A stretch of DNA of 64,000 nt from Escherichia coli (GTDB lineage: Bacteria > Pseudomonadota > Gammaproteobacteria > Enterobacterales > Enterobacteriaceae): assembly GCF_030013595.1 (NCBI RefSeq), contig NZ_CP122768.1. The stretch is one strand, 5' to 3'. This document shows positions 1,787-5,566 of the stretch, one piece after another. Below the pieces are notes generated by a model. The model searched no databases. It was not told the DNA's origin and saw only the letters and a list, made by a program, of their open reading frames with translations. How positions within the stretch are numbered: the stretch's first letter is position 1; each line of letters starts with the position of its first letter. Both the position numbers and the translations under genes were made by a program.

Positions 1787-1944
1787 AGTTCACCTCACAC
1801 AACATTCAGCCCACGGCAGTGGCACCACACTTCAAACATTCGCCTCACAACTTCACGACAGTAGAAGCCGTCAACGTCTCGCGTCAGGTCATAGCGATTG
1901 CCGTAACGCTGGCGTACCCATAGCTCAAATGCTTTATTCATTCT

Positions 1945-2187
1945 CTATTTCCTTTTCATGGCTCGTAATTTTTTCAGATGAGCTTCCAGCTCTGTTTCTG
2001 CCAGAATTTGTCGGTATTCCTGGTGATCTATCCGTTCAAACGATTCATTAAAATCGCTTATTTTTACAGATTGTGTTCGCCCATCCATTCTTCTGTACAA
2101 CACAGTGTTGTTTATGCAGCGAATAATTTTTATCGGGTAACCGGCACTGTCGGTATACAGTTGCCCTTGATTAATCAAAGCGAACAT
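1945..2187 (-). CDS. Hypothetical phage protein
   Basis: ORF with AGGAG-type ribosome-binding site before the internal Met (MFALINQ..); start chosen to avoid overlap with the upstream gene. Confidence 0.4.
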   Translation of the reverse strand: MFALINQGQLYTDSAGYPIKIIRCINNTVLYRRMDGRTQSVKISDFNESFERIDHQEYRQILAETELEAHLKKLRAMKRK

Positions 2188-2218
2188 TTTTTCTCCTGCT
2201 CTCTGAATAGTGAGAACT

Positions 2219-2590
2219 TCAGAGCCGTATGTTTGTAGCGGGTTCAATACTGATAATTTCTGCTGAGATAAGCATCCCGGCAAGCCAGAGTTCTCCGGAC
2301 AGGTCTTCATCCTGACATATCAGTTCGCCAATATTAATGGTGGCCATGATATCTGTTTCCCCTGTGCGCTCATCCTCGACTTCTTCATAAGGCAGCGTTG
2401 CGTACAGGCTTTCAATAGCGCAACTGATAACATCCAGTCCGGTCAGATTGCCGCCGACAGTAACTTCGAATGTTTCGCGGTATTCCCATAGTCCGAAAGT
2501 TAATCGAACGGTTTGTTTTGCCATGCGTCCGCATGACGTCAGATTCGGATCATAGTTCATTATTTGCGGTTGGGTATTATGGGTGTTCAT
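2219..2590 (-). CDS. Hypothetical phage protein
   Basis: 123-aa ORF in the leftward early operon. Confidence 0.45.
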   Translation of the reverse strand: MNTHNTQPQIMNYDPNLTSCGRMAKQTVRLTFGLWEYRETFEVTVGGNLTGLDVISCAIESLYATLPYEEVEDERTGETDIMATINIGELICQDEDLSGELWLAGMLISAEIISIEPATNIRL

Positions 2591-2630
2591 CTGCTTTTCC
2601 CTTAGCCCGGCAGGTCGCCGGGCATATAAG

Positions 2631-3458
2631 TTATTTAACCTGGATAAATGGTGTACTGGCGCCGCTGGTCATGTATTGCGGCAGTGTGCCGTTCCATTTA
2701 TTGATGGCTTCCAGCTCCATAACACCGGGGTTCTGGCGCAGAGCTTCACCGCGTAAACGAATAGCATCGGCTTCAGCCTGGGCTTTTGTGCGAATCGCAT
2801 CAGCCTGTCCGGCAGCTTCCGCGCGCAACATGTTGGCTTCCGCTTCGCGCTGTTTAACTTCCTGCTCGCGCTGCAGTGTTTTCTGGTTCGCCGTGACTTT
2901 GGCATTAATGCTGTCGATAACGGTTGGCGGGTACTCCGGCTTACCCACATATGAGAGGCTCATTACCTGAATACCGATGGGCGTCATTTCTGCCTGAATG
3001 TCTTTAAGAGCTGCATCCAGCAGTTCAGACTTGCCGCCGTCGATAAATTTGTCGGTGGTCATTTTGCTGGCCAGTCGATTGAGTGCGTCGGCGATCTTTT
3101 GACGCAGGTCGGTGTCGGTAATGTCATCCACGCCTTTGCGGTAGGTCTGAAACACCGTGGTAACTTTGGATGGGTCAACTTTGTAGGCCACGCCGATGTG
3201 ATAGCCGATGGTTGTACCGTCACTCATCTGGAAACTGAACGGTTCATCGTAGGTCTTCATTTGTTTGAAGGTCGGGAAGATGTAAACTTCAGTATTCCAG
3301 CCGGTCCAGTAGCGGCCAACGCCAACCACTTCACCGACGCCTTTGTCGTCGCCCAGTTTATTTACCTTGATGCCAACATTACCTGGTTCAACGCGATCGC
3401 AACCGACAAGGCCAATGGTCGGAAGAACAATGGCTAAAGCAAAAATAACTTTTTTCAT
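2631..3458 (-). CDS. SPFH/band-7 (stomatin/prohibitin/HflK-C-like) lipoprotein
   Basis: Signal peptide with lipobox LVGC and Asp at +2 (inner-membrane retention signal); SPFH-like core followed by an Ala/Glu/Arg-rich coiled-coil tail (AEANMLRAEAAGQADAIRTKAQAEADAIRLRGEA). Confidence 0.7.
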   Translation of the reverse strand: MKKVIFALAIVLPTIGLVGCDRVEPGNVGIKVNKLGDDKGVGEVVGVGRYWTGWNTEVYIFPTFKQMKTYDEPFSFQMSDGTTIGYHIGVAYKVDPSKVTTVFQTYRKGVDDITDTDLRQKIADALNRLASKMTTDKFIDGGKSELLDAALKDIQAEMTPIGIQVMSLSYVGKPEYPPTVIDSINAKVTANQKTLQREQEVKQREAEANMLRAEAAGQADAIRTKAQAEADAIRLRGEALRQNPGVMELEAINKWNGTLPQYMTSGASTPFIQVK

Positions 3459-3643
3459 CTTTTACCCTTAGTGAAAGAAAGACCCTTGTAAATGGCATAA
3501 ATGCAGGGCGGGGTCAGAAACGCCAGTGCAAAGCCGGAAATGACTGCTACCGTATCCTTCATGGATATAAGGAACGGGACGAGTAGTCCGTAAATGCATG
3601 CGATAATTGCCAGTAAAATTACTATTCTGAAATACAATCTCAT
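3455..3643 (-). CDS. Small two-helix membrane protein, translationally coupled to the SPFH lipoprotein
   Basis: 62-aa hydrophobic ORF whose stop overlaps the SPFH start by 4 nt. Confidence 0.5.
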   Translation of the reverse strand: MRLYFRIVILLAIIACIYGLLVPFLISMKDTVAVISGFALAFLTPPCIYAIYKGLSFTKGKR

Positions 3644-3819
3644 TGGTTTGTTGCATCCCGATATTTTTAACTGACTGACAGCGCAATAAAGAGAATAATG
3701 ATTTCTGTTAGTGTCAGTACTGTGGCAAGGATTAAAAGCAGTTTTACTCTGCTTAATTCACGGTTGCTTTTCATATAAACGGTTAGTAAAAAACGGAAGA
3801 ATTATATTCTTCTTAATAT

Positions 3820-4401
3820 TTAATGTGTCACTGGCGCTTCTGGCATACCATGAGTATTCAGATCGTGAATCATTTCATCCAGAAGGAGTTCAAGCTCTTC
3901 GCGCCCCATAGCAGAGACAATGAAACCATTATTAGGATCTGCGATGAGCATTTTTTGATAGAGAAACAGAACTCGCCCCATGCCTTCAGCTTCACCATAT
4001 TTTTCAATAAATCCCCATTCGACATGGTTTTGCAGGGCAATGCGAAGTGGTCCTGGGTATATACTCATGCAACCATGCTTCCCCTTATAAATAACTGCGC
4101 GATCTGTAGTTCCGTTATCGTTAGGGATATCAATGGTGCCGTTCTTGTCTTCCACTTCACTGATAAATTTCGCTACATATAGCCAGCGCCACTGGGCAAC
4201 CTTCATATCGACTGAAAATTTGCCCAGCAGTCCGGCATCATCAGCTTCTGCAATACATTGCATGATTCTTAACCCGTGCCAGTATGGATTATCGTATTCA
4301 CCATCATTAAGCCGCTGTACGGCCTCAACATAATCAATGGTTGTATTGCCAATTTTTATGCCATGTGGCGTAACTTCTGGTCGGAACTCTGAATGATTCA
4401 T
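3820..4401 (-). CDS. Hypothetical phage protein
   Basis: ORF with AAGGAG ribosome-binding site 7 nt upstream of the ATG at 4401 (MNHSEFRPE..). Confidence 0.5.
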   Translation of the reverse strand: MNHSEFRPEVTPHGIKIGNTTIDYVEAVQRLNDGEYDNPYWHGLRIMQCIAEADDAGLLGKFSVDMKVAQWRWLYVAKFISEVEDKNGTIDIPNDNGTTDRAVIYKGKHGCMSIYPGPLRIALQNHVEWGFIEKYGEAEGMGRVLFLYQKMLIADPNNGFIVSAMGREELELLLDEMIHDLNTHGMPEAPVTH

Positions 4402-4586
4402 AATGTTTGCTCCTTTGCTGGTGGAATAATCGTGTAGCCAGCTCTTTTTGCCATCCACAGAAATGTATCCATGCAGCCAACGAATTCATTATCCAACAGA
4501 TGTTTTGAGTAAATTACTTCACCATTTTCAATGGTTAGCAACACTCTTACTTTTTTATGTGTTATGTTCTGTTGTTTTTCTTTCAT
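4398..4586 (-). CDS. Hypothetical small protein
   Basis: 62-aa ORF with GGGAG ribosome-binding site; stop overlaps the downstream start by 4 nt. Confidence 0.4.
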   Translation of the reverse strand: MKEKQQNITHKKVRVLLTIENGEVIYSKHLLDNEFVGCMDTFLWMAKRAGYTIIPPAKEQTL

Positions 4587-4784
4587 TTATTTATCTCCCA
4601 TATGCTTTGCGCAAATACAGGTTGGCTATATGAAGATAAGAATCTCCATGTTGTGCAATGAGGCAGGCAGTTTTATACGATGCCTTATTTTTCAGGAAAG
4701 TCATAACTGAGTTCCCTCTATGAATAAAGGTTGTAACAATCCCCGGCGATAAAACCGTAATAAACGTTCAGAGCATGTTTGTTG

Positions 4785-5150
4785 TTATTGCGCTAGTTCT
4801 TTTTCGGCAGCAGCTTTTGCATATTCACATGCAAAATTCAGAATTTCGCTGCCGAGTGTTTTTATTTCGTTATTACTGGACATATGTAATACCTGTGTTG
4901 CATGCAATAAATGATAAACATTTACCGCAAATGAGTCCGGTTCCAGACAAATGCCTTCATAATCATCTTGCTGTGGGGTTGTTTCTGTCATTGCTCCTGA
5001 AGTGCATGCGAGCCTGTTTTTGACAATTCTCTTTCCTCTAATCACTATATCGGCTACATCTATTGCCTTTACAACCTCCGGGAGAAATTCCTGGTTTGTA
5101 TAATCAAAGTTATCAACATGGAGAACAGTTATGTTTTCGAACTTTTTCAT
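4785..5150 (-). CDS. Hypothetical protein (downstream partner of the HTH protein)
   Basis: ORF starting MKKFENI.. with GGAG ribosome-binding site; overlaps the stop of the upstream HTH gene. Confidence 0.45.
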   Translation of the reverse strand: MKKFENITVLHVDNFDYTNQEFLPEVVKAIDVADIVIRGKRIVKNRLACTSGAMTETTPQQDDYEGICLEPDSFAVNVYHLLHATQVLHMSSNNEIKTLGSEILNFACEYAKAAAEKELAQ

Positions 5151-5566
5151 GCGCAAGTATCTCCAGCTGTTGGTTTACCGGTTAACAGCCACATCGGGTC
5201 GCAACCAAGAACATTTGCCAGTGGGATAAGCATACTGATAGTTGGTTCATACTCTCCGCTTTCCCACTGGATGATGATTTCTTCATCGAGATCGAGCAGC
5301 CTGGCGAGTTCGGCGGTTGTTAAGCCGCAGGCTTCGCGTTGGGTGCGAATCCGATTCTGTGAATTAATGGCTAAATTTTGTTTGCATGAACGCGACGCGG
5401 TGAGGCTATATTTTTGAGTTACAGCCAGGATGGAGCTGGCAAGTTCAATTAACTCAGGGTTATTGCTGCTATACAGTAGTGCTCCAGCCCCTACTAAGAG
5501 TTGAATATTCTCAAGAGCATCGTGTTGATTTGTTGGTAACCCCATATACGATGACATTTTCCTCAT
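5147..5566 (-). CDS. HTH (XRE/Cro-C1-type) DNA-binding protein with N-terminal extension
   Basis: C-terminal half has a classic XRE helix-turn-helix (RIRTQREACGLTTAELARLLDLDEEIIIQWESGEYEPTISMLIPLANVLGCDPMWLL). Confidence 0.55.
   Translation of the reverse strand: MRKMSSYMGLPTNQHDALENIQLLVGAGALLYSSNNPELIELASSILAVTQKYSLTASRSCKQNLAINSQNRIRTQREACGLTTAELARLLDLDEEIIIQWESGEYEPTISMLIPLANVLGCDPMWLLTGKPTAGDTCA

Follow-up and report, generated by a model that had tools for sequence, protein, structure and literature searches.

A predicted cI-repressed early-left operon in a phiP27-type prophage of Escherichia coli, with signs of a three-module composition and a mobile SPFH lipoprotein cassette

What does a temperate phage carry between its repressor gene and xis-int when the genes that lambda has there are missing? 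The question is raised by positions 1790-5566 of a 64,000-nucleotide (nt) stretch of an Escherichia coli genome (contig NZ_CP122768.1; hereafter the window, meaning this whole stretch), of which positions 1-9000 are the left arm of a prophage. An earlier reading, made from the sequence alone, had seen in this block a leftward early operon of unrecognized genes, and had proposed it as the likeliest place for an undescribed accessory system, perhaps of defense or anti-defense cargo. The operon was correctly described, reaching from the cI terminator to xis-int, because a promoter with its operator and a cI terminator can be placed at its head, no internal intrinsic terminator was found, and the genes form a single-strand train; the accessory system finds no such backing. 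The block is probably the cI-repressed early-left (pL) operon of a phiP27-type temperate prophage, composed of three independent modules for which functions can be proposed. Coordinates of all features are collected in Table 1.

From pL leftward, the gene order is p10, p9, p8b, p8, p7, p6, p5, p4, p3, p2, p1, xis, int. Ten genes of the block are supported; an additional open reading frame (ORF), the 35-amino-acid (aa) p6, is doubtful. The tight packing and translational coupling claimed for the minus strand are confirmed by the ORF list: about 94% of 1790-5566 is coding, every credible gene is on that strand, ATGA start/stop overlaps are found at three junctions (p10/p9, p8/p7, and p5/p4), and the other intergenic gaps are 3-80 nt. 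Nine of the products match PHROG families, with expectation values (E) of 3e-24 to 5e-114, and ratios of non-synonymous to synonymous change (pN/pS) of 0.01-0.47 indicate purifying selection in every gene with informative changes, p6 excepted. The six plus-strand ORFs of at least 82 aa have no family match, and no Rfam family was found within 1500-7200.

The pL sequence is that of a strong sigma-70 promoter, and the predicted operator is a perfect palindrome between its two hexamers. A 23-nt relative of its sequence lies in the cI-cro spacer (6465-6487), and the 12-mer AATAGGTAAAYC occurs at only two sites in the 64-kb window, one at pL and one in this spacer, against an expectation of 0.33; a count of two came up in 2 of 100 shuffles. 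On the minus strand, a search for intrinsic terminators from 5600 to 1790 was negative. An AT-rich hairpin after p7 (3797-3813), tried as a candidate, was rejected as not significant (-4.9 kcal/mol, z -0.6). A GC-rich hairpin that separates p4 from p3, bordering a segment that is absent from ASU11 (see below), may be an RNA end, an RNA-processing or stabilizing element, or the leftover of a cassette boundary. By these signals, 1790-5566 reads as a cI-repressed leftward early operon with a predicted operator. Like the lambda pL operon, it has a leftward promoter under repressor control beside the repressor gene, many genes strung along one strand, and distal xis-int, but the first gene is a helix-turn-helix (HTH) regulator, no nut-like leader is visible in the ~43 nt from pL to p10, and homologues of N, cIII, kil, gam, bet, exo, ral, and sieB are lacking. 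The first six had already gone unmatched in the sequence-only reading, and rightly so: no PHROG for any of the eight was matched, and NCBIfam likewise gave nothing.

The sequence is already on record. Over 1790-5566 it matches E. coli ETEC1732 (NZ_CP122823) with 100% identity, and over 1792-5349 it has the gene order of, and 95% nucleotide identity to, genes L03-L10 of the Stx2e phage phiP27 (NC_003356/AJ298298). L04 corresponds to p3, L05 to p4, L06 to p7, L07 to p8, and L08 to p9, while L10 shares the C-terminal HTH half of p10; p1, p5, and p8b are unannotated in the phiP27 record. Homology ends inside p10: the break falls at about 5349, after the HTH and before the N-domain is reached, and marks the start of the immunity region. 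There the two phages differ, in cI, in the operators, and in the N-terminal half of p10, and the cI match is only 36% over 64 aa. Since the block is 95% identical to phiP27 L03-L10 and all of its genes are in catalogued families, it is not an undescribed system. The label “unrecognized” holds for its genes insofar as most products have no known function; it does not hold for p4 (Band_7/SPFH), p2 (DUF4222), p3 (DUF5406), or p10 (XRE-type HTH), which belong to named families.

Nor do the genes keep together as a single accessory system might be expected to. Among 5426 complete E. coli genomes, 1057 have some part of the block, and just 90 have at least 80% of it. ASU11 has p10-p7, p3, p2, and p1, with window positions 2561-3799 (p4, p5, and p6) swapped for 296 bp containing an unrelated small ORF; PhiR49_2 retains p10-p9-p8b-p8-p7 and p2/p1, with p3-p6 replaced by Ea22/EaA-type genes; and the p5-p4 pair travels alone into P1-, P2-, and SSU5-like phages. 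Linkage of DUF5406 to the SPFH cassette was considered and rejected, as prophages of Pseudomonas luteola and Serratia have DUF5406 without any SPFH gene. The proximal block p10-p9-p8b-p8-p7 is retained in all phiP27-like phages examined. As judged by these comparisons, the block consists of three independently assorting modules (proximal p10-p7, the p5-p4 cassette, and distal p3-p1), and not of one system.

No evidence for defense or anti-defense cargo emerged either. Ten ORFs (p8b was left out) were searched against the 5027 models of PADLOC-DB v2 at E up to 0.1, a check that the sequence-only reading had itself proposed. Nine of them, p4, p5, and seven other non-HTH ORFs, had no match; p10 matched through its generic HTH only, to the HTH parts of RmrA, capH, and PDC-M64. 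PHROG labels in the block are limited to unknown function, “lipoprotein,” “membrane protein,” and HTH regulators, and no PHROG with an anti-restriction or anti-defense label was matched.

Table 1. Features of the early-left operon and its flanks in the 64,000-nt window.
Feature	Position	Strand	Description
int	451-1649	-	after xis; annotated in ETEC1732
xis (excisionase)	1577-1786	-	phrog_2917 excisionase 1.5e-40; distal operon end
p1	1795-1941	-	48 aa, basic, immediately upstream of xis; phrog_3871 3e-35
p2	1945-2187	-	80 aa DUF4222, basic, isoelectric point (pI) 9.5
p3	2219-2590	-	123 aa DUF5406; pI 4.07, net charge -14
GC-rich hairpin GCCCGGC-GACCT-GCCGGGC	2602-2620	-	directly after p4, between p4 and p3; no U-tract; -17.1 kcal/mol, z -2.0
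p4	2631-3458	-	275 aa SPFH/Band-7 lipoprotein; phrog_200 5e-114
p5	3455-3643	-	62 aa, ATGA-coupled to p4; phrog_1130 “membrane protein” 1.5e-23
p6	3667-3774	-	35-aa hydrophobic ORF, doubtful gene
p7	3820-4401	-	193 aa, acidic, ATGA-coupled to p8; Enterobacterales prophage/satellite family
p8	4398-4586	-	62 aa; phrog_340 3e-24
p8b	4591-4704	-	37 aa, basic; ribosome-binding site AGAGGGA; unannotated in RefSeq
p9	4785-5150	-	121 aa, ATGA-coupled to p10; phrog_5451 5e-81, full length
p10	5147-5557	-	136 aa, first operon gene; phrog_4836 7.8e-51
Predicted operator	5609-5624	-	perfect palindrome AATAGGTAAACCTATT, between pL hexamers
pL promoter TTGACA-17-TATTAT	5635-5607	-	11/12 consensus positions; 26 bases past cI terminator
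cI intrinsic terminator	5680-5662	-	stem GCCCACTC-CAC-GAGTGGGT, then U8; -12.6 kcal/mol, z -2.9
cI	5703-6395		LexA-family repressor in RefSeq annotation

In the middle module, p4 can be placed in the SPFH/Band 7 superfamily by its Band_7 domain (Pfam, 8.2e-31) and by an Ala/Glu-rich heptad region at aa 197-254, which aligns to the coiled coil of prohibitin-2. Inner-membrane lipoproteins were taken to have a signal peptide, a lipobox [LVI][ASTVI][GAS]C, and Asp at +2; p4 fits this description, with LVGC and then Asp (MKKVIFALAIVLPTIGLVGC, followed by D). A lipobox with Asp or Glu at +2 is found in 14 of 15 p4 homologues, and in 12 of these the residue is Asp. On the strength of its Cys+Asp lipobox, and under the Lol-avoidance rule, by which lipoproteins with Asp at +2 are kept in the inner membrane facing the periplasm, p4 is predicted to be retained on the periplasmic face, anchored to the outer leaflet of the inner membrane. 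Its partner p5 has two predicted transmembrane helices (hydropathy profile). A Band_7 protein with a coiled coil, coupled to a small membrane protein, is also what SPFH-NfeD operons and the HflK/HflC-FtsH system have, and the predicted periplasmic orientation of p4 is that of HflK/C. Unlike these, p4 would be lipid-anchored, with no transmembrane helix, p5 is without an NfeD domain, and the pair is phage-borne. HflC, HflK, prohibitin-2, and erlin all face a non-cytoplasmic compartment, and all but erlin pair with AAA proteases.

Constraint on p4 is strong (pN/pS 0.01-0.05; in the comparison with RCS47, 96 synonymous and 5 non-synonymous changes, pN/pS 0.02), and its GC fraction is 0.52-0.53, vs. 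0.37-0.44 in the adjoining genes. It is carried by 715 of the 5426 complete E. coli genomes (13%), with about half of the places on plasmids. Its mature part has 92-93% protein identity to genes in P88 (P2-like) and RCS47 (P1-like); in SSU5-like phage-plasmids, DNA identity is about 75%. A p5-type partner of 62-78 aa with two helices is found in P88, RCS47, and pEc-CD45-4, in each case immediately upstream of the p4 homologue and overlapping it or 3 nt off. Identity between p5 and these partners is 25-39%, with Y18, L21, P23, I26, S27, V34, G37, and P45 (p5 numbering) common to all.

In RCS47, the p5 counterpart is an unannotated 78-aa two-helix ORF (L004 3275-3511, minus strand) overlapping the start of the SPFH gene, and the pair occupies the place of tciA-tciB-tciC in P1, between upl and the tRNA preceding ban; this site is in the operon that is transcribed from the C1-controlled Pban. 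In P88, the pair is located in the early operon. The cassette is thus co-oriented inside an early operon in every context that could be read, with a repressor-controlled promoter mapped in the window and in P1, and no promoter private to it was found at consensus stringency in either the window or RCS47. Its co-orientation in repressor-controlled early operons argues against expression in a repressed lysogen, and such expression is what a classical prophage defense gene needs.

The neighboring p6 is probably not a gene, since it has no ribosome-binding site and its pN/pS is at least 0.67 (0.67-1.69, on few changes). It has no PHROG match, and the only places where it turned up are next to the cassette of this lineage, in ETEC1732, phiP27, and a Stx2 phage. 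Both a type I toxin and a real gene of any other kind were rejected for p6, on the missing ribosome-binding site, the lack of coding constraint, and the absence of any Rfam family in the interval searched.

In the proximal module, p10 has an N-terminal helical domain (approximately aa 1-60) and a C-terminal XRE-type HTH (aa 70-124), the latter matching HTH_3 (Pfam PF01381, 1.3e-11) over its full extent. A match to the NCBIfam DicA subfamily scores 43 bits, under the cutoff. The label “CII-like” attached to phrog_4836 and to the ASU11 annotation was rejected for p10, which has no match to Phage_CII (PF05269), generic HTH families being the only ones found. The adjacent p9 has no Pfam match, but its C-terminal ~60 aa are a paralogue of the p10 N-domain: phrog_4587 is matched by both proteins, BLASTP aligns them with 32% identity over 41 aa, and a phmmer search with the p9 C-domain reaches the N-domains of p10 homologues in PhiR49_2 and a Stx2 phage (1e-7 and 3e-6) as well as a stand-alone 66-aa version in a Stx2 phage. 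RefSeq cuts p9 to 68 aa in the ETEC1732 record (L001 6996-7202), where p8b and p6 are unannotated; the 121-aa form is supported by the ATGA coupling to p10 and by full-length matches to phrog_5451 and phiP27 L08.

An arrangement of this kind is known from Bacillus subtilis, in which SinR, an XRE regulator, has a small antagonist, SinI, that shares its oligomerization domain. Here too an XRE-HTH protein has a helical non-DNA-binding domain, and the adjacent gene encodes a paralogue of that domain only; the order of domains is reversed, however, with the HTH of p10 C-terminal, and there is no sequence homology to either SinR or SinI.

Of the smaller proximal genes, p8 has no Pfam match, and p8b is probably a real gene: it is conserved in five phages at 73-97% amino-acid identity, and is annotated in PhiR49_2. 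For these two, as for the distal p1, conservation goes no further than PHROG membership or position. Homologues of p7 are present in Stx1, Stx2, and Klebsiella temperate phages, and also in integrase-carrying islands, where a Zn-ribbon/Toprim/DUF927 primase gene is the next gene downstream of them or the next but one, with Ash, AlpA, PerC, or DUF4222 genes nearby. Distant island homologues are found at L006 5001-5612 and L007 5001-6011, and a Serratia homologue (P0049) has an extra C-terminal extension of 130 aa. The small proteins upstream of the island homologues were compared with p8 and with the p9/p10 domain; no match was found, and homology to either was rejected.

The distal p3, p2, and p1 are generic accessory genes of lambdoid early-left operons. 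DUF5406 is assigned to p3 by Pfam PF17400 (3.8e-21), which nearly all of its 132 homologues also carry; in hosts ranging from E. coli to Pseudomonas, p3-type genes are situated in early-left regions, downstream of the repressor gene, and a literature search found no papers on DUF5406. The p1 copy in a Serratia prophage is 67% identical. For p2, DUF4222 (PF13973, 3.1e-15 over aa 4-54) gives membership in the family of RgdR, a DUF4222 protein (PMC10877973, PMC3378721) and small basic prophage regulator of O157:H7 that activates LEE1 and represses motility (PMC3378721, PMC10877973). Both are small basic prophage proteins, p2 with pI 9.5 and RgdR (ECs1581, prophage CP-933C) with pI 10.09 and 99 aa (PMC3378721); the likeness is by the DUF4222 domain and not by alignment to RgdR, and the shorter p2 has no RGD tripeptide anywhere in its 80 aa. 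The RGD motif is required for activation of type III secretion by RgdR (PMC3378721).

From these parts a working scheme can be put together. On derepression, pL would drive the entire gene train into xis-int. The p10 protein would bind DNA as an XRE-type regulator, and p9 probably docks on it via the shared helical domain and modulates it in the fashion of SinI on SinR. Made early in lytic growth or after induction, p5 and p4 probably assemble, at the periplasmic side of the inner membrane, into an HflK/C- or prohibitin-like ring or cage that would organize or shield some inner-membrane component; likely purposes would be protection of envelope integrity, or control of a membrane protease or an entry route during phage development. 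The remaining p3, p7, p2, and p1 would be stand-alone, host-directed accessory proteins, with p2 probably a small transcription co-factor like RgdR, and p3, because of its strong charge, a candidate mimic or inhibitor.

Several points weigh against parts of this scheme. A weak internal candidate promoter (GTGACA-19-TATAAT at 3831-3801) can be picked out by eye, and lytic-phase-only expression of the operon is suggested by position. The SinR/SinI analogy draws on approximately 32-45% identity over 41-47 residues together with adjacency, and the N-domain of phiP27 L10 gives no match to p9. Nothing informative came of matching the structure models of p7 and p3 to known folds. The closest characterized relatives of p4 (HflC, HflK, prohibitin-2, and erlin) are all weak matches, with E between 1e-3 and 1e-5, and about 1e-3 against solved structures; its scores are 24.7 bits to TIGR01932 hflC (cutoff 134.4) and 22.7 bits to TIGR01933 hflK (cutoff 159.4). 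No NfeD family match was found for p5 in Pfam, or indeed any Pfam match, and a literature search turned up no functional studies of coliphage SPFH lipoproteins.

Could the cluster, or at least p5-p4, nonetheless be an anti-phage system, acting in superinfection exclusion at the inner membrane or as prophage-borne defense? The pair occupies a variable slot of the early-left operon, moves among four phage backbones, and can be found in 13% of complete E. coli genomes; purifying selection on it is extreme. Its products are membrane-located, as are known exclusion proteins: T4 Imm and Sp, P22 SieA, and HK97 gp15 are all inner-membrane proteins. In the P1-like phage it replaces tciABC, described in the P1 record as [quoted passage not shown] But neither p4, p5, nor the seven other non-HTH ORFs match a PADLOC model, no consensus promoter belongs to the cassette itself, and its setting in each early operon makes it probably silent in a repressed lysogen, so that we consider an anti-phage role possible but not likely; exclusion during lytic growth could still be accommodated. 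A modulator of FtsH, made by the phage and joining, mimicking, or competing with the HflK/C cage in the role of CIII, is quite unlikely. Among characterized proteins, p4 matches HflC, HflK, and prohibitin-2 best, the predicted periplasmic topology is shared with HflK/C, and the pL operon has no cIII homologue of its own; the matches are, however, of the low significance given above and far under the HflC and HflK cutoffs, no CII-family protein was found in the part of the phage examined (p10 being without a Phage_CII match), and the same cassette is found in P1-, P2-, and SSU5-like phages, in which lysogeny decisions are not known to involve FtsH. A more ambitious proposal, in which p5-p4 is an autonomous, horizontally mobile module whose early periplasmic cage either excludes superinfecting DNA or re-tunes FtsH as CIII does, strikes us as doubtful. 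For the role of p5-p4 we would put membrane organization or shielding ahead of exclusion, and exclusion ahead of FtsH modulation.

Two further alternatives concern the soluble products as well. The acidic p3, p7, and p9 might be host-takeover or anti-defense factors, either DNA mimics or inhibitors of nucleases or restriction. All three are early in the operon; p3 has 14 net negative charges in 123 aa, p7 and p9 each have a pI of 5.0, p3-type genes keep their place downstream of the repressor gene across the host range given above, and p7 is common to phages and to islands that have both an integrase and a primase. Acidity by itself counts for little, however, and with no anti-restriction or anti-defense PHROG matched we regard this as unlikely. 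Very improbable, in our view, is a role of parts of the block as cargo for lysogenic conversion or virulence, with p2 reprogramming host transcription like RgdR and p4 acting on an animal host. The effects of RgdR on LEE1 and motility would be the precedent for p2, and for p4 it would be PM0222, an HflK/C-like SPFH protein of a Pasteurella prophage reported to be a TLR1/2-activating virulence factor (PMC9872710), in the only study found on a prophage SPFH protein. Yet p2 does not have the RGD motif needed for activation of type III secretion, and lies within a repressor-controlled operon. As for p4, bacterial lipoproteins in general activate TLR2. The reading that we favor is still that of a repressor-controlled early-left operon of independent modules.

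Some observations concern the rest of the prophage. At ~664-669, int has a 1-nt homopolymer deletion (T6 in the window vs. T7 in ETEC1732, the remainder being identical over 1.3 kb) that splits it into ORFs 387-1649 and 451-906; either the deletion is genuine, a frameshift that inactivates int and locks in the prophage, or the homopolymer was misread in sequencing. Tandem elements are suggested by ETEC1732, where another gene with an integrase domain (L001 1128-2318) is found directly upstream of the counterpart of the window's int. Between cro and a Rha-family gene is a small minus-strand gene (6842-7093), in RefSeq a “bssS family protein,” with a terminator-like hairpin at 6813-6785; because it has this hairpin of its own, it may be a moron independent of the early-right operon. 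A 365-aa minus-strand ORF at 14242-15339, opposite to its neighbors, has the look of an OmpC/NmpC-type porin with a signal peptide, and probably serves in lysogenic conversion. The ORF translations listed for 13400-21200 showed no stx genes. A tRNA-Gly(TCC) gene lies inside the prophage (17443-17517), and ssrA, encoding transfer-messenger RNA (tag ANDENYALAA), lies at 43396-43758 on the minus strand, just past the tail-fibre end of the prophage; from this position, integration was probably at or beside ssrA.

The genes of the block are all catalogued, although mostly uncharacterized, and there is no support for a new defense system among them. What they do show is the content of a non-lambda early-left operon in an E. 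coli prophage family that is very common and includes Stx1, Stx2, and Stx2e converting phages. Within this operon, p10 and p9 may serve as a simple model for how a regulator can be controlled by a protein paralogous to one of its domains. The most unusual part is p5-p4, found on four unrelated temperate-phage backbones and in 715 of 5426 genomes with a pN/pS of 0.01-0.05; its spread, its early-operon position, and its constraint make it a cheap and well-defined target for studying phage effects on the inner membrane. If it does form a cage that excludes DNA or re-tunes FtsH, it would represent a previously undescribed class of phage membrane exclusion or host-takeover device, present in some 13% of complete E. 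coli genomes.

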